Virus record (IMG/VR): IMGVR_UViG_3300034062_008235
Location: 1 to 64,000 of that record
From: a virus
DNA length: 64,000 nucleotides
Reading direction: 5' to 3' (one strand)
In this document: positions 3,249-50,118 of the stretch, in pieces
How positions within the stretch are numbered: position 1 is the first letter of the stretch
Layout of the letters: every line of letters begins with the position of its first letter
Program-made: the position numbers and the translations under genes
The notes under the pieces: generated by a model
Told to the model about the DNA's origin: nothing
What the model saw: the letters and a program-made list of their open reading frames with translations, nothing else
The model's database searches: none

Positions 3249-3995
3249 TTATGTCTTCACCAAGCCAATCGTTCTTCCACGCAAGTCTCTCCATCCTACC
3301 ATGTTTGGTCCTTCAATATCAAGATTTTTCAATAATAAAAGCCCATTTTTTTCTATTTTGTCCATATAAAAAGAAACATCAACGGGCTTGCTCATTGTGT
3401 CTAGATATAAAATTTTATATTTTTTGTCTTTTTCTAATTGGTAATTTATATTCATATGTTTTCCAAATATATGAGAATTTTTAACAACAAAATCATCCAT
3501 GACTAATGCTTCTGCATTACTCTCTGTGAAAAATAAAGACCATATATAACTAAATGGCATAAAAGAATAGTAATCGCTTAATTTGTAAAATAACTTTGGT
3601 TTATTTTGTGAATAAAATTGCCAAGATTCATTAAACATTTTAAACAAATCGATCCTATTGTAATCTCTAAGAACAAAATTTTTATGTGTATCTGAATCAA
3701 ATTCCAATTTACATTCAGAAAACATACCTTTTAAAAGGATATGCTCGCAGTGTTTTTTAATATGAGTTTCAATTAATTGTAATTCTTGCAATACATTATC
3801 TGAAAAAAATATATTAACAAAGGTTTTATGGCTAAGAATGCTTCTAACAAAAAACGAATTAGCTATCGAATGATCGCAAAACAAATAATTTTTATAATTT
3901 TTATTTTTTAGGCTTTCATCAAATTTTTGATACCACTTAGTAAAAGGCAATCCCGGAGCATTTTGAAAAATAAATCTAAAATCTGGATAATTCAT
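3249..3995 (-). CDS. hypothetical protein, coupled downstream of spoVR
   Basis: 248 aa ORF with a 4-bp ATGA overlap with spoVR. Confidence 0.65.
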   Translation of the reverse strand: MNYPDFRFIFQNAPGLPFTKWYQKFDESLKNKNYKNYLFCDHSIANSFFVRSILSHKTFVNIFFSDNVLQELQLIETHIKKHCEHILLKGMFSECKLEFDSDTHKNFVLRDYNRIDLFKMFNESWQFYSQNKPKLFYKLSDYYSFMPFSYIWSLFFTESNAEALVMDDFVVKNSHIFGKHMNINYQLEKDKKYKILYLDTMSKPVDVSFYMDKIEKNGLLLLKNLDIEGPNMVGWRDLRGRTIGLVKT

Positions 3996-5587
3996 AGTTT
4001 ATTCAATTGCTCCCTAGTAATTGATTTTGGATCAGCTGAATCATAATCACCATTCATATCCTGACAATAATAAAAAACTTCGTCGCCATTATGGTTTTTA
4101 GTTTCTAAAACAACTGGCTGTCTCATTAAGGAACAAATAGACTTCATTACTTCGTATGCATAAGGTTTATAAAGTTCGATACCTTCCCACTTATGTTCCA
4201 TAAAAAACATATTACCTTTAAATCTTGGCTCAATCAATTTAATTGATGGTAATCCTCGATTAATATATTTCCTAAGCAACTCTTTCTTGATCTTCTTGTA
4301 ATCTCTACTTTCAATCTTAACTTCACCATTTGGATATCTTTTGTATTCAAAAAATTCGTTCTTTTCGCAAAAATCTTTAGTAAAAAATTCATTAATAAAT
4401 TGATAATCATCATAGTTTTTGCAAACTTCAAAAACTTTTTGCTTACCAAGACCAAGCTTTAGATCCCAATTTTCTTTCTCAAGAGGATCAGCACAGTTTT
4501 CATAATCTGTACCAAATCTACCCTTGTCCCATCTTTCCTCAATATCCATCAAAAGAGTGAATCCAAGTTTATATGGATTCATACTATACTTACCACCAAG
4601 AACACCAGCCTTATGAATTGAATATTCCACAATCCCAGCATCTTCTGTTTCTTGACCAAGGCTACAATAACCTTGTTTTGCAATAATGTGATAATCGCAA
4701 TAACTCGCAAGTCCTTCATTCAATGCTTTGGTTTTACCTTGTGGGCTAAAATAAATTGCTTCATTATAAAGAATTTCTGCAATATCTCGTTGCCAAGGTT
4801 TGAATGGCGCATTTTCTTTAATATAACCAAATATATCAGTCTCTGGTGTAATAAGAAGATTAAGATCTTGCATAATCTCACGTTCTTCAATTTTCTTGTT
4901 TTGAGTTTTTATAAAAGATTTAGTGTTAATCCAATCTTCCATGTAATCATTTTTTGTTTTAATCCTTCGTGGAAATACATAATCTTTATTATCTGTGATG
5001 ACAACGTCTTTTGCTTTTCTTTCTTTCCATATATTCATTGGATCGACAAGCGTTTCTATCCTAAATAAATGATCCATAAATTCAGTAACAGTCTCTCTTC
5101 CATATCGAGACATATACTTTCTTACATTTGATCCATTGTTGGCAAGCTCATTGTGAGCATTCGTATTAGTTCTAGAAAAATGAATGTTGTTTTTGAAAAA
5201 ATGACAATGCCCAAGAGCATGAGCAATAACTGTAATATTATCAAGTAAAGTGTTTGAATTTAGGCAATACAAGTAACATGGTGAAGAATTAATCACCATT
5301 TCATATATTCTATGATTGCCATATAGATATCCTCTTTGCATTTCCTCGTATTCTGCACCAAATTTCCAATGAGGAAACCTTACTGCAAAGCCGCCGTAGC
5401 TTGCAACTTCAGACATTTCATCATGAGAAAGCATTTGAACAATAGTAGGGTAAAAATCCAAACCAAAATCTTTACAAGCTTGAAAAATAGTGGGAATATG
5501 TTTTTGTAATTCTTCTGGAATGGGCACACCGGGAGTGGTTGCTGATCCAAACAAAACTGGTGAGCCGAATAAGAATTTATCTGACAT
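3992..5587 (-). CDS. spoVR: SpoVR/YcgB family protein
   Basis: FGLDFYP, RFPHWKFG, IYEMVINSSPCY, IAHALGHCHFFKNN, WQRDI, TKALNEGLASY and NPYKLG motifs. Confidence 0.95.
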   Translation of the reverse strand: MSDKFLFGSPVLFGSATTPGVPIPEELQKHIPTIFQACKDFGLDFYPTIVQMLSHDEMSEVASYGGFAVRFPHWKFGAEYEEMQRGYLYGNHRIYEMVINSSPCYLYCLNSNTLLDNITVIAHALGHCHFFKNNIHFSRTNTNAHNELANNGSNVRKYMSRYGRETVTEFMDHLFRIETLVDPMNIWKERKAKDVVITDNKDYVFPRRIKTKNDYMEDWINTKSFIKTQNKKIEEREIMQDLNLLITPETDIFGYIKENAPFKPWQRDIAEILYNEAIYFSPQGKTKALNEGLASYCDYHIIAKQGYCSLGQETEDAGIVEYSIHKAGVLGGKYSMNPYKLGFTLLMDIEERWDKGRFGTDYENCADPLEKENWDLKLGLGKQKVFEVCKNYDDYQFINEFFTKDFCEKNEFFEYKRYPNGEVKIESRDYKKIKKELLRKYINRGLPSIKLIEPRFKGNMFFMEHKWEGIELYKPYAYEVMKSICSLMRQPVVLETKNHNGDEVFYYCQDMNGDYDSADPKSITREQLNKL

Positions 5588-5589
5588 GA

Positions 5590-6777
5590 TTAAAACACCC
5601 GATTGGCACTTTGGAAAGGAGACCCTAAAATATCTTTAATAGCTTTCAGAATAGCTTCATTTCTTCTTTCTTCGCTATTGATAACATCAAATGGAATTTC
5701 TGCAACAACCACATTGTCTTCTAAATCGCCTTCTACAATAGCTTTCTCAACAGATTCTGCAACGCTGTGGTTGTAAGCATAAGCTCCTATTTGAGTTACA
5801 GCAACGAGATTTACAATATTTTGACCAAACTCTTTCTTTAACAGTGAAACAAAAACTTCATTATCATTGTCATAGTTTTCACCATCAGTAAAATAAAAGA
5901 AATAGATGTTCCAATTGTTTGGAGGAAATCTGTTTTCAAATTGTTTTGCGACTAGATCTAAAGCTGTAGAGCATGTGGTGCCACCGCCATTTCTTATCCT
6001 GTAGAAATCTTTGGCATCGACTTCATGAGCGGCAACATCGTGCCATACATAAAGTCTTTCTACTCGTTCATAAAAATTTCGAATATAAGTATCAATCCAA
6101 TATGCCATGTCAGAAACAACGGACACTTTCCTGTCGTCCATAGATCCACTAGCATCTCTGGCAAAGATAACCACAGCATTGCTGGACGGAAATTTAATTT
6201 CTTTGTATTGTCGATATCTTTTGTCAGAGTTAATTGGATTAATCATCTTGACTTTATCTTTAACACCGGGAATTTCATATAAATTGTTAATTTCTCCAGT
6301 TCCGCATAGACGCTTCATTGCTGTAAGCATTGTTCTGCGTGTATGACGAAGAGATTCTGGACCAACAAGAGAAATATTGTTGTATTTTATTTTTATGTCT
6401 TCAAGATTAGCTTGTTGTTTAGGTTTAAGGTCAGGGAGTTGCAATTCATCTTTCATAAAATGAAGGATGTCTTCCATGTCAATCTGAACGATAATGCCTT
6501 CACTTTCATCCTGCCCTGCACCGTTACCTTGTCCTTGACCTTTGTCTTTCCCTAAGACATCACCTTCTTGACCATCTCCACGTCCAACACCATTGGGATT
6601 TTTCCCGTGAAGAAAATGAGGAATGTCAATTGCAGGAATCTTTATAGAAACTTTGCCATTTTTACCACGGTGACGAAAAATTTCACCACTTTTGATGAAC
6701 TTCTTTAAGTTCTTTCTAATCCTACCGCTGACCACATCCCTAAAGTCTTTGTGGTCAGAATCAATCCTTCTGGGCAA
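5590..6777 (-). CDS. yeaH: YeaH/YhbH (DUF444) vWA-domain protein
   Basis: LQLPDLKPK, DKRYR, MIDAS-like DASGSM, GGTTCS, WNIYFFYFTDGEN; TTG start after AAGGAG. Confidence 0.93.
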   Translation of the reverse strand: MPRRIDSDHKDFRDVVSGRIRKNLKKFIKSGEIFRHRGKNGKVSIKIPAIDIPHFLHGKNPNGVGRGDGQEGDVLGKDKGQGQGNGAGQDESEGIIVQIDMEDILHFMKDELQLPDLKPKQQANLEDIKIKYNNISLVGPESLRHTRRTMLTAMKRLCGTGEINNLYEIPGVKDKVKMINPINSDKRYRQYKEIKFPSSNAVVIFARDASGSMDDRKVSVVSDMAYWIDTYIRNFYERVERLYVWHDVAAHEVDAKDFYRIRNGGGTTCSTALDLVAKQFENRFPPNNWNIYFFYFTDGENYDNDNEVFVSLLKKEFGQNIVNLVAVTQIGAYAYNHSVAESVEKAIVEGDLEDNVVVAEIPFDVINSEERRNEAILKAIKDILGSPFQSANRVF

Positions 6778-6793
6778 TTTTATTCTCCTTAAA

Positions 6794-8869
6794 TTAGAAC
6801 AGATCTTCTGCTAGATCGCCTCTTGCAAAAATACTGCTTACATAATCAAGCACATCTGTTGCGCTCTGCTCATTATAACCATATTTTTCAACAAGTCTTT
6901 GCTTAACCGCATCAATCTTCTTTTGAACATCTGGGTCAACTGTTGTCGCTCCAGATGAAAATGCACTTAGCTTAATGTGATCTTTTGTGTCTTCAAACAA
7001 TTTTGCTTCCAAAGCTTTCTTAAGGAGGGAATTACTATCCCACCTAAAAACCTTTTGTTTAATAGCAAGATCACCAATAAATGCCGCAATCATTCTTCGG
7101 AAGTCATCACAAGTAGATTCTGGAACATCAATCTTACTCTCAATAGATCGCATTAATTTTTCATCTGGACTTTCTTCTCGTCCAGTAATCTTATTGGTAA
7201 TTTTTGCTTTATTAATGTAAGCCATCAAATTGTCGATATAATTTGCACAAAGCCTGACAATTGCTTCTTCATCTCCAACAAGAGCCTTTTGAACTTCATT
7301 CTTAAGAATGTCATCAAGCTTCTTAGTTGCAAGAGTAACACAGTTTTGATACTTGCGCACCAAATCTTTATTAGAAATAAGAGAATGATTATCAAGTCCA
7401 CTCTTTAAGGCATTTAACACCATGAATGGATTGATGTAATCATGTCTGCTTGACAGCGTAGAAGAAATCTTGTCCTGCACATACCTTGCAGACATACCAG
7501 TCATGCCTTCATTCGGATTCTTATCTCTGAGTTCACGAACTCTATCAATTGTCCATCCGGGCAACATCTTTCCATCGTAAAGATCTGCCTTTTCAGTCAA
7601 AGTAATCTTATTGTCCTTATCATCTTCCAAACGTGTCAACACTGAAAACAATGCAGCAATCTGCAAAGTATGAGGAGCAATATGTTGCTTAATCTTATTC
7701 AAATTATAATCTTGTTCCAACACCTTAAGCTCCTTGCTCCATTCCAAGAGATAAGGAACTTCAATTCTTACAGTTCTGTCCTTTAAAGCTTCCATGTATT
7801 GGTTATTCTTTAACTTTTCGTACTCAGGAATGTTAGTGTGTCCAATGATAGCTTCGTCAATACTAATCTGAGAAAACTTCTTAGGCTTGATTGACTTCTC
7901 TTGTGATGCTCCGAGAAGATCATACAAGAAAGCTGTTTCAAGCTTTAACATTTCAATGAATTCAATAACACCACGATTAGCAACGCAGAATTCCCCATCA
8001 AAATTGAATGTTCTTGGATCAGAATCACTTCCAAATGTTGGCAATAAAGCGAAATTAATATCACCAGTAAGCTCTGTACTATCTTGGTTCTTTTCGTCTT
8101 TAGGTTGGAAAGAAGCAATGCCAACTCTATCTGCTTCAGAATATTGCTTTCGGACAACAACAATGTGGTTGTTTACAACTTTAACCCAATCTCCATTATA
8201 CATCTTGAGTAATTTGTCAAAGAAAAACTTACATTTTGGATTGATTTCACCTTCTACAGCAAGACTATAGAGAGTTGTTCTTTGTGATGGGTCAGCATTG
8301 CCGCTATGAATCTTATTTAGTTCATCAAGTACTTGCTTCCTTACTGTAAGGGGAAGAAGCTTCAAAGGATCTTCATTCATTGGGCAATCACAAACATCGC
8401 TTGTATAAAATCCATTCTGTCCTGTTGGGAGATTAACCCATTTATATGAATACCAAGCACCATTTTCAGTCTTGGAATAATCTTCCATGTTACGTTTAAT
8501 TAATCGACAAATAGTAGATTTAGCAGAACCTACAGGTCCGCATAGAAGAAGTATGCGTTTTTCTGGACCATAATGTCCGGCTGCGCCCTTGAAATGAGCA
8601 ACCAAAGACTCAAGCTGTTCTTCAATACCAAAAACTTTAATTTCTTCATGGTTCTCAAAAAACTTATAAGTTACGATCTTCTTGCGATACTTATCAATTT
8701 CTTCTGTTCCAAATGAAGTAATCATGTCGTAAATTCTTTGATGAGAATTACGAGCCAATTTTGGATTGTTATAACATCTGTTAATATATTCTTCAAAGCC
8801 AAGCTCTTCATGGAGCTTTTTGTAATCATCAAGATTATTGTTATTAGCGAACTGTGTTAAACTAACCAT
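6794..8869 (-). CDS. prkA: PrkA/YeaG AAA+ serine protein kinase
   Basis: Walker A GPVGSAKST, DEKNQDSTELTG, ANRGVIEFIEMLK, HTN, EALKDR, HIAPHTL and GMSARY motifs. Confidence 0.96.
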   Translation of the reverse strand: MVSLTQFANNNNLDDYKKLHEELGFEEYINRCYNNPKLARNSHQRIYDMITSFGTEEIDKYRKKIVTYKFFENHEEIKVFGIEEQLESLVAHFKGAAGHYGPEKRILLLCGPVGSAKSTICRLIKRNMEDYSKTENGAWYSYKWVNLPTGQNGFYTSDVCDCPMNEDPLKLLPLTVRKQVLDELNKIHSGNADPSQRTTLYSLAVEGEINPKCKFFFDKLLKMYNGDWVKVVNNHIVVVRKQYSEADRVGIASFQPKDEKNQDSTELTGDINFALLPTFGSDSDPRTFNFDGEFCVANRGVIEFIEMLKLETAFLYDLLGASQEKSIKPKKFSQISIDEAIIGHTNIPEYEKLKNNQYMEALKDRTVRIEVPYLLEWSKELKVLEQDYNLNKIKQHIAPHTLQIAALFSVLTRLEDDKDNKITLTEKADLYDGKMLPGWTIDRVRELRDKNPNEGMTGMSARYVQDKISSTLSSRHDYINPFMVLNALKSGLDNHSLISNKDLVRKYQNCVTLATKKLDDILKNEVQKALVGDEEAIVRLCANYIDNLMAYINKAKITNKITGREESPDEKLMRSIESKIDVPESTCDDFRRMIAAFIGDLAIKQKVFRWDSNSLLKKALEAKLFEDTKDHIKLSAFSSGATTVDPDVQKKIDAVKQRLVEKYGYNEQSATDVLDYVSSIFARGDLAEDLF

Positions 8870-33355: not shown

Positions 33356-34666
33356 TCAAACTTCAGAATAATTTTTCAAAAATGCTAAATTTTCGCCAAA
33401 CTTAGTATCAACAATAAATCTTAAGGGCTTATAGTCAGAAAATTCTTTCTGCAAAGTATCTTTAATTTGCAATACAGATAATTTTAATTTTTCCTTTTTA
33501 ACAGCAAAAACAAAACAATCGTGAATTGAAAACAATAATCTAAAATCTTTAGTTTCAATTGATTTTATTTCATTCATCTTCATAAAACAAAATACTGCTG
33601 CTGGTGAATGTACAGAAAAATTCATGGCTTTATATCCCTCATCTGCAATAAAATTTTTCTTTCTTTTGAAGTAATCAAGACAATAGCCAAAATTTATTGC
33701 TTGAGCAGACTGCTGTGAAACATAATCAAACGCTTTGCTAAATAAAGTCTTTATTTTATTCAAATAAGTCTTGGCTTCCAAAATAGAACAACCTAAAGAT
33801 TCTGATAACTTAGCTGGAGAAATACCATAAATACTTGGTAAAAATATCTTCTTACCTAAATCTTTATAGTTTTTATTTTCAAAATTATTTAAATCAAGAA
33901 CATATTGAGCAATTTGTTCATACGGATGACATGTGTTATACAATAATGTATTTAAGTTAGCATCATTACTCAAAAATGCCAAAACATATAACTCCAATGC
34001 CTTAAAGTCAAACGATACAAATATTTCATCTTCTGATAAAACAAAATTTTTCTTAATTTCATAAGTCAAAGTATGTGGATTAAAATTTCTATTAGAAAAA
34101 ACTTTAGAATTCAATCTTCCATTTTCTTGCAATCTTGATGAATAATAAGGATAAACAAATGTAGCTTCACTATCCAATATGATAGCTTGATTTTCCATGT
34201 GTGGAATTGTTTCACATATTAATTTTTGAAAAACATTTTTATATATTTCAAAACTATCATGCTTAATAAATTTCAAAAATATAGAAACTATGTCAGTCAT
34301 TTTTTCAAAAGAACAACTTATATCATTGTAATCACAATACCAATTTAAATCAAAAAATACTTTAAAATCAATTTGTTTAGTACAATTTTGTTTCAAACAA
34401 AAAGAATGAAATAACTTAGAATCTAAACAAATTATCGGTCGATTATATTCTCTTAAACAATTATTCACATGGTGTACAAACGAACATGTATTGTTTTGAT
34501 GTAATTTTATTTCAAATTTAGATCCTCTTGGTCCTTCAAGTTTTATATGAAGTAAAAGATTTTGTTTATCAGTTAAATCGGGTTGATTTAAAATTTGCAA
34601 ATAAATAAATGGCTCGACACAAAATGTGTCGAAAATGTTTTCAAAAGTGGTTTTGTCAATACTCAC
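33356..34666 (-). CDS. divergent family A DNA polymerase domain protein
   Basis: NGRLNS, motif A SFDFKALELY, motif B GKKIFLPSIYG, motif C SIHDC. Confidence 0.8.
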   Translation of the reverse strand: MSIDKTTFENIFDTFCVEPFIYLQILNQPDLTDKQNLLLHIKLEGPRGSKFEIKLHQNNTCSFVHHVNNCLREYNRPIICLDSKLFHSFCLKQNCTKQIDFKVFFDLNWYCDYNDISCSFEKMTDIVSIFLKFIKHDSFEIYKNVFQKLICETIPHMENQAIILDSEATFVYPYYSSRLQENGRLNSKVFSNRNFNPHTLTYEIKKNFVLSEDEIFVSFDFKALELYVLAFLSNDANLNTLLYNTCHPYEQIAQYVLDLNNFENKNYKDLGKKIFLPSIYGISPAKLSESLGCSILEAKTYLNKIKTLFSKAFDYVSQQSAQAINFGYCLDYFKRKKNFIADEGYKAMNFSVHSPAAVFCFMKMNEIKSIETKDFRLLFSIHDCFVFAVKKEKLKLSVLQIKDTLQKEFSDYKPLRFIVDTKFGENLAFLKNYSEV

Positions 34667-34672
34667 ACCAAA

Positions 34673-34701
34673 AATCTACGATTACTAAAAACTTAAGTCA
34701 A
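34673..34701 (-). promoter_or_regulatory. sigma70-type promoter, leaderless
   Basis: TTGACT-N17-TAGATT-N6-GTG. Confidence 0.65.
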
Positions 34702-34720
34702 ACATAATTTTTATTTTTTT

Positions 34721-34735
34721 TGGCACACTTTTTGC
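34721..34735 (+). promoter_or_regulatory. sigma54 -24/-12 motif
   Basis: TGGCACACTTTTTGC = GG-N10-GC consensus. Confidence 0.65.
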
Positions 34736-34937
34736 TTCGCGCGTTTATACTAAGTATTTATATTCATCTTCAATTACTTCGTAATTGAAGATGCTTTAGT
34801 TTAAGTGGTACTAATTTACTCTTCGCTTCGCTCAGAGTAAATTAGCACCACTTAATAAAATATGATTTATTAAATAATCAAAATTAGAACTAATACTTAT
34901 TAAGTTAATTATATTAATACTTAGTATTAATTAATAC

Positions 34938-34952
34938 GCAAAAATCGTGCCA
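34938..34952 (-). promoter_or_regulatory. sigma54 -24/-12 motif (convergent copy)
   Basis: Minus strand TGGCACGATTTTTGC = GG-N10-GC consensus. Confidence 0.65.
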
Positions 34953-35126
34953 AATGACAAACAAAACAAGAAATATTTTTAGCTCGTAAAATCGCTTTAA
35001 ACGCATTTAGTGTTAAAAATCGACCTGAGTCTCACTTGGATGTAGAAACGAATTCCTAGCCATGTTTATTAACGAATAAACGGCATATGTGACTGGAATG
35101 ATCCCCATATAATTTCAAACTCAAGT

Positions 35127-35155
35127 TTGACTTTTAAGATTGAATGGATTAGAGT
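35127..35155 (+). promoter_or_regulatory. sigma70-type promoter, leaderless
   Basis: TTGACT-N17-TAGAGT-N6-ATG, mirroring the promoter at 34673-34701. Confidence 0.65.
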
Positions 35156-35161
35156 AAAAAC

Positions 35162-35866
35162 ATGCGACAGATTTTTAAAACATCTACAGAACAACTGCTT
35201 AGTCTATCTGATGATTCAGATATGGTTTTTGCTTATCATTTGTTGATATATTATCTTAATTCTGAGTATCATTATTTTCCTGACTATAACCACACAAAAT
35301 TTAATGATTTAAAACCTATAAGAAAACAATCAGCGTTTAAGTATCTTTTGAAATTTGTGAAAGATAAAAAAGAAATTTTCAAAGCGCCAGCTGAGTATTT
35401 TATTTTTATAAAAGCTCAAATGGAGATTATTAAAATCTTAGAAAACAAAAATCCAATTATAAATCCAAGCCTATTGATTGGCGAAAAAGCTGAAAAAAGA
35501 TATTTTGTTTGGATTAAGAAAATGCGAGAAAATAAGATGATGACAAAAACTGTCACGAGAAAACTTGAAGATAGATTTATATCATCTGCTTTTGAAAATA
35601 CTATTGTATCTTTGAAAGATACATTAGGAGATAATTTTACATATGAAAATTTTTACAAAAATATTAGAAGAATATTATTGCAGATAAGAGCTAAACAAAT
35701 TGATCCTATTTGGTGTTTTGTTAGCGAATGGGTTAATAAGTTACCAGACGACATAAAAAATGAAATTATTAGTTTAACAGAATGTGAAAAATATAAAGAC
35801 TATAATGTTGATGATATAAAAAAAATTTACAATGAAAAGTTTAACAATTTATCTCAAGAGACATAA
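35162..35866 (+). CDS. hypothetical protein adjacent to the candidate origin
   Basis: 234 aa basic/aromatic helical ORF. Confidence 0.7.
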   Translation: MRQIFKTSTEQLLSLSDDSDMVFAYHLLIYYLNSEYHYFPDYNHTKFNDLKPIRKQSAFKYLLKFVKDKKEIFKAPAEYFIFIKAQMEIIKILENKNPIINPSLLIGEKAEKRYFVWIKKMRENKMMTKTVTRKLEDRFISSAFENTIVSLKDTLGDNFTYENFYKNIRRILLQIRAKQIDPIWCFVSEWVNKLPDDIKNEIISLTECEKYKDYNVDDIKKIYNEKFNNLSQET

Positions 35867-47480: not shown

Positions 47481-48728
47481 TTATTCAAAATCATCAAGAT
47501 TATAAATAAATGATTGTTTAGGAATATGTCTTTTATTATCTTTGGATAAAAACCAATGCCATCTTGTTGGATGTTCTGGAGTTACTTTGGTGCCCATTCC
47601 ATCAGTAATAATAAATACTGCTGATGGATATTTTTTGTGTTTTAATTTTTCTTTTTGAATACAATCCTCTATAATGCTAAAACAAGTACCTCCACCACCA
47701 TAAATTTTACCAGAAGACAAATCAGTTTCTTCAACTTTTGTATCGAAGCAAAATAATCTGATATTAAACTTTTCTTTTGGCAAACTATTAGCAGCTGTGA
47801 AAAATCGTTCTGCCAAATTTATACAACTTCCTGACGTATCTAAAAAGAAATAAACATCTGTTTTATTTTTACTAAGATGGAAACATTCTATTTCAGCGTT
47901 TGAAGGCAAGATAAGACCGTTGTAAAACCCACTCATTCTTCTAGATTTTCTAATCCATTGTTCTTTTTCAATGCTGGAAAAGCGTAATGTCTCAAATTGC
48001 CACTTCTTTATGATTGATTCCCATTTTTTCTTTCTCGATTTTTTAACTTTATTAATTGTCATCCAAGAGCCTTTATCAACTCCTGCATTCTTAATATTAT
48101 TGATAGCATCGCTTAATTGCTGTTTTTCAGAAGCATCCAATTGATCAATAGTTTGTTTGACAGCTTCTTCAAGCTGTTCATCTGTTAACCCTGAATGGTC
48201 ATCAACAAGTTTGCCATTACTGTCTCCATTGCCATTGCCACCTCCATTGTTTTCTTTTTGTTTTTCAATTTCATTGTAGTAAAATTCAGTGGATTCATCA
48301 TCTGGATAAGGAAACCCTAAATACTTTTTATCTTTAAAAACAGTATCAACCCAACAATACTCATTGTTTGAGTCAACATCTTCTTTGATAAAACCAAAAT
48401 CTCTCACAAGAGAATGATTTACGACAACATCCATGGCTATATTGGATATCTTATTGTCAACTCCTTCAAGAAATCTTGACCCATGTTGAAGCACAATATG
48501 CAGTGCTTCGTGGCATATAACAAACATTTTTTTATAATCATCACATTTTTCCCAAAACTTTTCATTGAAAAGAAAGTTAATAAACTTTCCTTCTTTATCA
48601 AATTGAACTGCTGCTGTAGGAATCTTATCAGTGAAAAAGGGCTTGCCCATTTCTACAATTTTGTAGAAAAGACTATGATGGCAAGCAAGCTTGTTTTTAA
48701 GCCTTTCCCAATCAGAATTAATATCCAT
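47481..48728 (-). CDS. metallopeptidase + vWA domain protein (DUF2201-like)
   Basis: IPTAAV, CHEALH, NIAMD..VN, LDTSGS, FDT, GGGT and ITDG motifs. Confidence 0.88.
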   Translation of the reverse strand: MDINSDWERLKNKLACHHSLFYKIVEMGKPFFTDKIPTAAVQFDKEGKFINFLFNEKFWEKCDDYKKMFVICHEALHIVLQHGSRFLEGVDNKISNIAMDVVVNHSLVRDFGFIKEDVDSNNEYCWVDTVFKDKKYLGFPYPDDESTEFYYNEIEKQKENNGGGNGNGDSNGKLVDDHSGLTDEQLEEAVKQTIDQLDASEKQQLSDAINNIKNAGVDKGSWMTINKVKKSRKKKWESIIKKWQFETLRFSSIEKEQWIRKSRRMSGFYNGLILPSNAEIECFHLSKNKTDVYFFLDTSGSCINLAERFFTAANSLPKEKFNIRLFCFDTKVEETDLSSGKIYGGGGTCFSIIEDCIQKEKLKHKKYPSAVFIITDGMGTKVTPEHPTRWHWFLSKDNKRHIPKQSFIYNLDDFE

Positions 48729-50118
48729 TTTGAATTCCTTTCATTACGTTGATGATCCCCAAATTTTCACATTTATTTTTGAAAACTAAGTTCTGAGTAA
48801 CCTTGACAGCAAACATTTCATCCAGTTTTACATAACATTTATTCCATACTTTTACCAATGAATCCAAATTATGCTGCTTTATAGTTGCTTCCCATTTTTC
48901 AATCACAAAGTCCACAATAAATGCTATCGTCTTTTTACAAACAACAATATCTGGATCATCTGGTAAATTTTGCAAAATAATTTTAATTCTATCGTTTTTG
49001 TTACAATTTTCTATTTGATTTATGTAATCAGCGTTTGACAAAGATTCAGCAATATCATTAGTAGCAGTTTTGCTTATACTTAAATCTTCTACACTATTAT
49101 TAGCGTAGTACGATCTTATTTTCATCAATGCCTTGGGATTAGAACCAGCAGTTAATATTTGTGTGATTACATTCTTAAACTCTTGATTACTATCTTTATT
49201 TTTTAAGATATAATCAGATATATTCAATTTTTCATCTGCAATTAATAAAGATAATTTTTCTCTTTTCAAAAGAGGAATAAAAAATTCCATGTAATTTTCA
49301 TTAAGATTAATTATTTTTATTGCTGAAGCATAATTGTTCTCAATATTTAAAAACAATTTTGCTTCTTTTATATTTTTCGTTTCGTATAATTTAGATAATT
49401 TCTTATCAATTGGTCCATTACTAATATCTTGTCTAAGTTTACCAATGTTACTATCTTTTGGTAGAATATCTTCTAGAGGAATACCTTTACTCATAAATTG
49501 CAAAGCATAATCAAGTCTTCTAGGAGATATCTGTTTTTTAATATTTTCTGGTAAATCATTCCACCAATTAATACTAGCAGCAGCTATATCGTTTCCATAC
49601 TTATTGCTAAAGTATTCTGTATCACAAGTATATGGAACAACAATTTGATTGGCATGAAAACGATCCTTATGTGCTGGATCTAACCTTTCAACATCATAAG
49701 TTCCTTGTTCATCTTCTGGATTGATAGCTGCCCAAACTACTTTCAGGTTAGGAAACTTTCTGCCATTGATTGATTTGAATTGACATAATTCAAGCAAAGC
49801 ATTTCTAATCTTACTGGGAGATCTGTTGAATTCATCAACAAAAATAGCTTGTATTTTACCTTCATCAACAAATGCTTTTGGAGGTATAATTTCAATACAT
49901 TTTTTGCCGTTATATTCAACTTCTTTGGGAATTCCGATAAAATCAACCCATGGATCAAGCGTACTTCCAGAAAAGTAAAGCCATGATTCATTTAAAACTA
50001 AGCCTTTTTCTTCAAAAGCTTGTTTTACAATAGATGTTTTACCAACACCATGTTCTCCAGTAAGAAGAACATTCATTTCACAGTCGTAGTACTTCTTTAA
50101 CCTTTCAACCAAATTCAT
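48718..50118 (-). CDS. MoxR-like AAA+ ATPase
   Basis: GEHGVGKT, FVDEFNR, AAINP and LDPAHKDRF motifs. Confidence 0.88.
   Translation of the reverse strand: MNLVERLKKYYDCEMNVLLTGEHGVGKTSIVKQAFEEKGLVLNESWLYFSGSTLDPWVDFIGIPKEVEYNGKKCIEIIPPKAFVDEGKIQAIFVDEFNRSPSKIRNALLELCQFKSINGRKFPNLKVVWAAINPEDEQGTYDVERLDPAHKDRFHANQIVVPYTCDTEYFSNKYGNDIAAASINWWNDLPENIKKQISPRRLDYALQFMSKGIPLEDILPKDSNIGKLRQDISNGPIDKKLSKLYETKNIKEAKLFLNIENNYASAIKIINLNENYMEFFIPLLKREKLSLLIADEKLNISDYILKNKDSNQEFKNVITQILTAGSNPKALMKIRSYYANNSVEDLSISKTATNDIAESLSNADYINQIENCNKNDRIKIILQNLPDDPDIVVCKKTIAFIVDFVIEKWEATIKQHNLDSLVKVWNKCYVKLDEMFAVKVTQNLVFKNKCENLGIINVMKGIQNGY

Follow-up and report, generated by a model that had tools for sequence, protein, structure and literature searches.

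A 495-nucleotide (nt) gap between divergent replication-region genes of an uncultured freshwater phage contains a conserved element, probably a cis-acting module that controls the phage replication cluster, composed of two facing sigma-54-type promoter boxes, two hairpins and an A+T-rich spacer. The gap (positions 34667-35161) lies within a stretch of 64,000 nt (hereafter, the window) representing positions 1 to 64,000 of the IMG/VR record IMGVR_UViG_3300034062_008235, which contains 91,057 bases in total, and it separates a minus-strand family-A DNA polymerase gene (polA) from a plus-strand gene for a 234-amino-acid (aa) protein. By analogy with the origins of phage T4, the element is possibly a transcription-triggered, R-loop-type replication start site; we favour this origin reading tentatively, as plausible but unproven. 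The element is present in a single copy, at a strand divergence within the replication cluster. An initial annotation of the window had placed the gap beside a cluster of genes for a polymerase, a helicase and a single-stranded DNA-binding protein (SSB), and a family-A polymerase, a DnaB-type helicase and a gp32-like SSB were indeed identified there. Its description of the gap as the largest non-coding one holds approximately: two gaps in a greedy map of open reading frames (ORFs) are nominally larger, though these contain listed ORFs.

The left box, P_L (TGGCACACTTTTTGC; TGGCAC-N5-TTGC; 34721-34735, plus strand), points to the right, with a predicted +1 near 34747, and the right box, P_R (TGGCACGATTTTTGC; TGGCAC-N5-TTGC; 34938-34952, minus strand), points to the left, with a predicted +1 near 34926. 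Both were found where the initial annotation had located two exact, facing GG-N10-GC motifs, and no other exact TGGCAC-N5-TTGC match occurs in the record, whether inside or outside the window; 0.044 exact matches were predicted from the base composition. Each box matches all 10 of the 10 sigma-54 core positions, with GG (-24) and GC (-12) exactly 10 nt apart, and in the left box a T precedes and a W follows the core, as in bacterial sigma-54 (RpoN) promoters. No ORF of at least 40 aa lies between the boxes, as had also been claimed. A 12-mer, ATACTAAGTATT, that had been described as shared near the two +1 positions starts 11 nt past the plus-strand box (34747-34758, plus strand, at the predicted +1 of P_L) and 10 nt past the minus-strand box; its positions were correct, but each copy is itself a short palindrome, and the left copy is not conserved in relatives, whereas the right copy or its palindrome is kept in five of the eight lineages compared below. 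A 13-bp palindrome (AATACT-T-AGTATT; 34916-34928) spans the predicted +1 of P_R.

Relatives were identified by an alignment-based scan with PolA. Of 16 PolA homologues, 12 are at 63-100% identity. The comparison set consists of seven viral and six metagenome contigs, which contain 11 distinct elements from eight lineages with PolA sequences 92-63% identical. In all eight lineages, the box pair is kept in the same place, in convergent orientation and with the 10-nt GG/GC spacing. The left box (TTGGCAY-NN-TTTTTGC) is invariant across the 11 elements; in the right box, TTGGCAY and the spacing are kept, and the -12 GC is replaced by GT only in the most distant lineage (L008/L147). The variable bases within the boxes are those left free by the sigma-54 consensus, and the neighbouring bases vary. 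Conservation of both motifs and their spacing in related phages had been proposed as a check, and both are kept, with the single exception of this GT. The box pair is essentially the sole such site in the whole records of the relatives (19-111 kb each), and the element is single copy in every record examined. A second apparent pair in one relative (G002) was rejected as a perfect 21-bp inverted repeat followed by a T-run, probably a terminator; this repeat (L254, G002:C1:46713-46768) has TGGCACATAAATTGT on both arms and only mimics a sigma-54 pair. A chance match of a conserved motif to all ten sigma-54 core positions is not credible, and the boxes are very probably true sigma-54 sites, at which we infer binding and activation of sigma-54 polymerase. 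Inverted binding sites for a phage initiator, offered in the initial annotation as an alternative, are unlikely given this complete core match.

The nested inverted repeats noticed in the initial annotation correspond to two hairpins. Hairpin 1 (34765-34793, both strands) has a 13-bp stem and a triloop reading UUC on the plus strand and GAA on the minus strand; on the plus strand it is followed by CTTTAGTTT and is terminator-like. A 7-nt linker (CTTTAGT) leads to hairpin 2 (34801-34855, both strands), which has a 22-bp stem with one A.C pair (in the window, on the plus strand; the minus strand has G.U there) and an apical loop of 11 nt with additional internal folding. The minus-strand apex of hairpin 2, GAGCGAAGCGA, is predicted to contain two sheared G.A pairs, two G-C pairs and a GAA triloop, and the minus-strand caps read GCGAAGC in hairpin 2 and ACGAAGT (C-GAA-G) in hairpin 1, both of the C-GNA-G form. 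GCGNAGC mini-hairpins are exceptionally stable in single-stranded DNA (ssDNA) and have been noted at the G4 origin, RSF1010 ssiA and the N4 hairpin promoters (PMC13037366). The plus-strand loops of both hairpins read UUCG, and on the minus strand neither hairpin is followed by a U-run. Both 180-nt RNAs between the promoters fold far better than shuffled sequences (z -11.4 and -9.9).

Directly downstream of P_R lies a 60-nt spacer (34856-34915; 90% A+T) that resembles an unwinding element and varies among lineages in both sequence and length (~35-75 nt). To the right of P_R, ~170 nt of partly conserved sequence precede a sigma-70-like promoter of the 234-aa protein gene; a conserved RNA structure was considered for this flank and dropped, because a weak 8-pair hairpin alone was found there. 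The ends of the element form imperfect terminal inverted repeats. No Rfam match at the gathering score was found in the window, and a relaxed threshold gave only noise-level hairpin matches.

Fifteen stem pairs keep their pairing through changes on both sides (RNAalifold), including eight compensatory pairs that belong to hairpin 1 and six that belong to the hairpin-2 lower stem, and the hairpin-2 apex is invariant. In none of the lineages does the plus strand fold better than the minus strand, and the two are equal only in hairpin 1 of L008/L147. At three positions, the wobble pairs are all G.U on the minus strand (A.C if the plus strand is folded) and none occur the other way; the sample is small (sign test, about 0.13), but this asymmetry and the chemistry of the loops agree, and together they favour the minus strand as the folded strand. 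If so, the hairpins would form in the P_R transcript or, alternatively, in the non-template DNA strand that transcription from P_R displaces.

In the T4 origins oriF and oriG, an activator-dependent promoter is followed by a sequence-independent A+T-rich unwinding element, and a persistent R-loop forms (PMC3016281). The corresponding order, P_R followed by a variable stretch of 90% A+T (34856-34915), was found here. The R-loop-type start site is favoured because P_R and its variable spacer reproduce this minimal oriF/oriG design and because the displaced strand carries ssDNA-stable caps in an element that is single copy in the replication cluster. In the proposed mechanism, the two sigma-54-class promoters would remain silent until an AAA+ activator (of the host, or a phage one not seen here) fires them, after which transcription would proceed inward. 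Minus-strand transcription from P_R would enter the A+T-rich spacer and then both hairpins, and its RNA would remain hybridized to the template. The displaced non-template (minus) strand would then fold into hairpins with the C-GAA-G/GCGAAGC caps, which may hold the bubble open and offer a structured site for helicase or primase loading. P_L would provide either a primer in the opposite direction or a short antisense RNA controlling the first transcript. The R-loop and the priming are what we infer from these features. A bolder version, in which a jumbo phage gates its replication start via the host sigma-54/activator system, with the converging promoters priming a bidirectional origin and the hairpin module locking the displaced strand open, appears rather unlikely.

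The hairpin-2 apex extends the comparison beyond phages. Its apical 21-mer, ACTCTTCGCTTCGCTCAGAGT (minus strand, ACTCT-GAGCGAAGCGA-AGAGT; 34818-34838), is a member of an interspersed hairpin motif. The exact 21-mer was found in 13 viral contigs, in every case in a replication region: seven belong to the phages described here and six are prophage contigs. In the latter, the 21-mer lies in frame within a variable linker of a DnaT-domain replication protein of ~300 aa, and three of these contigs were checked for direct-repeat arrays, which adjoin it in L013 and L011, for example as five copies of CAGTTCCGAACC in L013. The six contigs are high in G+C (L010:2561-2581, L013:4104-4124 and L011:1238-1258, and also L014, L017 and L019), and the layout, with the 21-mer inside a gene, recalls that of lambda, in which the origin is inside gene O. 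A blastn search of the prophage motif region against 50,697 phage records gave no match.

The 21-mer was also found in at least 120 bacterial or archaeal stretches in a collection of one genome per prokaryote species; the matches listed include Chloroflexota, Acidobacteriota, Clostridia, Desulfobacterales, Zixibacteria, Bacteroidota and other taxa. The general form is TGTC-AYNCT-GAGCGNAGCGA-AGNRT-CYC, with a 5-bp stem (AYNCT/AGNRT), and the motif type is a C-GNA-G triloop plus tandem G.A pairs. Covariation is seen in the stems of the bacterial copies and in their inner pair (GC or AT), and the middle position of the loop accepts any base (A in 98, T in 55, G in 21 and C in 11). Among the matches listed, 120 bacterial loci contain 185 copies, of which 167 are intergenic, in both orientations; they often form inverted pairs or arrays and are neighboured by unrelated housekeeping genes. 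One Caldilinea genome (Chloroflexota) holds dozens of copies, including inverted pairs resembling miniature inverted-repeat transposable elements (MITEs). No neighbour family was enriched in a Pfam tally of 100 neighbours, and no associated transposase was found. A link to small GIY-YIG nucleases was considered and rejected, because a regular-expression search, which was perhaps too strict, found none in 1.5 Mb and no Pfam neighbour was enriched. Rfam gave no match at the motif in 21 other loci, and no paper on the hairpin motif was found by a literature search with its sequence. The motif, which occurs at loci L023-L142 and L150-L253, is translated in spurious ORFs as EILRFAQND-like peptides, and in one Terriglobia genome a distance of ~115 nt separates one of its copies from an Acido-Lenti-1 RNA (RF01687, 54.7 bits; L032:3187-3233).

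The phage apex fits the family consensus letter for letter and is present in a single copy in the phage record. A version with an ATTCT stem was found in 104 viral contigs, where it lies mostly next to genes for capsid, adaptor, terminase and helix-turn-helix (HTH) proteins, and the idea that the motif marks viral replication modules generally was therefore rejected. Among viruses, confinement to replication regions holds for the exact ACTCT version alone. Judged from the distribution of its copies, the hairpin cap is a general module and not an origin-specific one, because the bacterial copies lie beside housekeeping genes and the ATTCT version lies beside capsid, terminase and HTH genes.

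Each gene flanking the element has a sigma-70-like promoter of its own. That of polA (TTGACT-N17-TAGATT; 34673-34701, minus strand) ends ~6 nt before the GTG start codon, and its TTGACT and TAGATT-like hexamers are conserved in the alignment of relatives. That of the 234-aa protein gene (TTGACT-N17-TAGAGT; 35127-35155, plus strand) is its mirror image and is present in four of seven lineages and deleted in the rest. The inner sigma-54 boxes are thus not needed merely for the expression of these genes.

Two palindromes lie upstream of the boxes, in the range of sites for bacterial enhancer-binding proteins (bEBPs; ~80-150 nt). The first (TCGACAC-N5-GTGTCGA; 34614-34632), located in polA codons ~12-18 with its centre 124 nt upstream of the P_L +1, is kept in the eight lineages by compensatory changes, some of which are non-synonymous, and looks like a terminator on either strand; an activator- or other protein-binding site and an attenuator hairpin are possible roles. 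The second (GTTTATT-N4-AATAAAC; 35064-35081), ~147 nt upstream of the P_R +1, is weakly conserved and is a candidate activator site. The sequences of the two palindromes differ, which gives no indication of one activator acting at both, and to our knowledge they match no activator site. Neither an RpoN DNA-binding domain nor a true sigma-54 activator gene was found in the 91-kb record, which represents ~16% of the genome. The sole match to Sigma54_activat (PF00158), a marginal one, was rejected as a phage-encoded activator; it falls in the Walker-A region of an AAA_3 ATPase of the MoxR type, and the control matched in 14 of 14 genomes. The gene for this ATPase adjoins that for a DUF2201_N (putative metallopeptidase) protein in the window (47481-50118).

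Several observations are neutral to a replication start at this site or weigh against it. The GC-skew check proposed in the initial annotation was uninformative on the fragment: the cumulative skew forms a local plateau at the gene-strand switch, and the minimum of the 91-kb fragment lies elsewhere. The element has no iterons, only two 14-nt direct repeats of two copies each, and no relaxed DnaA box lies within 34667-35161. Converging polymerases build up positive supercoils between them, which would oppose unwinding (the twin-domain model). In the 91-kb fragment, a minor part of the genome, RNase_H and 5'-3' exonuclease (FEN) domains were not found, and rpoN and a true activator are likewise absent. 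The hairpin cap, as a bacterial intergenic repeat with an ATTCT version in 104 viral contigs, is not specific to origins, and no such element adjoins the gene for a homologue of the 234-aa protein (28% identity) in the 595-kb phage LR756511.1. We know of no sigma-54-driven origin, and no precedent for one was found in the accessible part of the literature on sigma-54 in phage genomes.

The alternative that survives best, though we consider it doubtful, is an antisense (countertranscript) or overlapping-leader RNA switch with no replication start. The P_L and P_R RNAs would be fully complementary over ~180 nt, with the hairpin loops making the first contact; the P_R RNA would be a long, structured leader transcript for the replication operon, with the P_L RNA as its antisense regulator, or the reverse would apply to the 234-aa protein gene. 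ColE1 RNA I/RNA II and other plasmid copy-control RNAs have convergent promoters ~180 nt apart that enclose stem-loops, and the layout here is similar. Each promoter is aimed at the far gene on its own strand and could drive that gene, although both genes have promoters already. The strong folding of both RNAs would suit such a switch, as would the conserved terminator-like hairpin in polA codons 12-18, a possible regulated attenuator. Hairpin 1 with CTTTAGTTT, if it acts as a terminator on the plus strand, would give a P_L RNA of ~55 nt; however, the U-run is lacking in the L008 lineage, and the minus strand has no U-run after either hairpin. The plus-strand UUCG in both loops fits YUNR, the U-turn motif in the recognition loops of antisense systems (PMC4485353), but kissing alone does not explain the invariant hairpin-2 apex or its identity with the bacterial motif, and the wobble asymmetry favours one strand only.

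An element acting at the DNA level without productive transcription is improbable. Sigma-54 holoenzyme forms stable closed complexes without an activator, and such parked complexes might have an insulating, roadblock or decoy role or repress the polA promoter, with the left box 20 nt upstream of its -35 hexamer; alternatively, the boxes might be sites for a phage protein and the hairpins might extrude as a cruciform. The absence of an activator gene from the 91-kb fragment and of a shared upstream activator site would suit parked complexes. However, the right box lies ~170 nt from the other promoter, so occlusion would not be symmetric, a phage-protein site matching ten sigma-54 core positions by chance is very unlikely, and the strand-asymmetric wobble pairs indicate a single-stranded state and not a symmetric cruciform.

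Two independent sigma-54-dependent small RNAs acting in trans on host or phage messages are quite improbable. Small RNAs of this kind exist in bacteria (Qrr and GlmY/GlmZ), and a promoter followed by a short unpaired 5' stretch and a hairpin is a common small-RNA layout, but the would-be unpaired seed stretches are the least conserved parts of the element, the Rfam matches are only noise, and the P_R RNA has no clear terminator. A functionless fossil REP- or MITE-like hairpin insertion with coincidentally promoter-like ends, which the membership of the apex in a repeat family forming MITE-like inverted pairs (e.g. in Caldilinea) and the imperfect terminal inverted repeats might suggest, is very improbable and already disfavoured by the retention of the same place down to 63% PolA identity, the compensatory stem changes, the invariant boxes and the single copy in every record.

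The replication cluster to the left of the gap begins with polA (33356-34666, minus strand; 436 aa, GTG start), the first gene of the minus-strand cluster, whose product matches Pfam DNA_pol_A (E 5.5e-26). Genes for the DnaB-type helicase, the gp32-like SSB and a RecA/UvsX-like protein also lie to the left, and genes for a dCMP deaminase and two ResIII/DEAD superfamily-2 helicases, one of which additionally has Helicase_C, are nearby. Tail sheath, ribonucleotide reductase and SbcC-like genes identify the record as that of a phage. CheckV completeness was 16% for this record and 4-23% for the fragments of the relatives (19-111 kb). The genome size of the lineage is suggested to be roughly 0.4-0.6 Mb, near half a megabase, because the three fragments of 78-111 kb were estimated to be only 16-23% complete. 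The region gave no blastn match among the 50,697 phage records, and a tRNA scan found none. Shine-Dalgarno-like sites precede 40 of the 99 genes in the record; a Bacteroidota host was considered through TAnnTTTG boxes and rejected, as these are not enriched upstream of genes (9 of 99, compared with 6.7 expected). Elsewhere in the window, homologues of SpoVR (3992-5587) and PrkA (6794-8869) flank a 395-aa ORF (5590-6777), and this layout (3992-8869) recalls the bacterial yeaG-yeaH-ycgB starvation operon.

The 234-aa protein gene (35162-35866, plus strand) is syntenic with the element in all close relatives, and the protein family comprises 121 clusters in a representative library. No family could be assigned to the protein: no Pfam, PHROG, PDB or protein-atlas match was found. 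An initial structural model (predicted local distance difference test, pLDDT, 65) was without fold matches, and a model from a 72-sequence alignment (pLDDT 94.7) is all-helical, with two domains. The best Foldseek match of this model to PDB had an E-value of 0.85 and the best VIA-align match, to AAA+ lid-like helical bundles, a Z of 5.2, none of them convincing. Weak BFVD matches to annotated helicase loaders were obtained (E 0.04-1.3; template modelling score, TM, 0.24-0.33), and comparison with T4 gp59 by hhalign showed no profile similarity (probability 0.3%).

A sigma-54 promoter gives no transcript before an ATP-driven activator acts on it, so a phage with a conserved sigma-54 pair in its replication cluster would tie a key replication step, either origin firing or replication-gene control, to the signalling state of its host; we know of no case of a phage origin tied to host signalling through sigma-54. 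The invariant hairpin tip belongs to a bacterial hairpin repeat that is very widespread, unnamed and absent from Rfam, and this phage, with the motif in a single copy and a defined context, provides a tractable system for finding the role of the motif. If the bolder version of the origin reading is true, the widespread GCGNAGC plus tandem G.A motif may be a general ssDNA signal for the replication or priming machinery.

Among known systems, the element most resembles T4 oriF (uvsY) and oriG (gene 34), in which an activator-dependent promoter is followed by a variable A+T-rich unwinding element and the non-template strand is left single-stranded (PMC3016281), as proposed here; like T4, the phage has gp32-like, UvsX-like and superfamily-2 helicase genes. 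It differs from oriF and oriG in its promoters of the sigma-54/bEBP type instead of MotA/sigma-70, its two facing promoters, its conserved hairpins and its family-A polymerase, and in being known from sequence alone. Similarly to ColE1 RNA II/RNA I, it has convergent, overlapping predicted transcripts with stem-loops able to kiss, and a family-A polymerase could extend an RNA primer; in contrast to ColE1, it has sigma-54 boxes instead of sigma-70 promoters, two hairpins instead of three, no sequence relation, and a phage instead of a plasmid context. GCGNAGC-type hairpin caps are shared with the complementary-strand origins of G4, St-1 and alpha3 and with RSF1010 ssiA/ssiB, where they resist SSB and mark priming sites (PMC13037366), but those signals work on templates that are single-stranded by nature, or within an iteron origin, whereas the phage element would have to be opened by transcription. 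The boxes share with bacterial RpoN promoters the exact TGGCAC-N5-TTGC core and palindromes 124 and 147 nt upstream, and differ from them in forming a phage-borne convergent pair with no ORF between and without a matched activator site. Finally, the hairpin-2 apex, like REP/BIME and REPIN sequences, comes from a multi-copy intergenic family, often in inverted pairs and with covarying stems; unlike them, its family spans many phyla, has an almost fixed 15-nt core and showed no associated transposase among the neighbours tallied, and the phage copy is single and embedded in a longer, lineage-specific stem.

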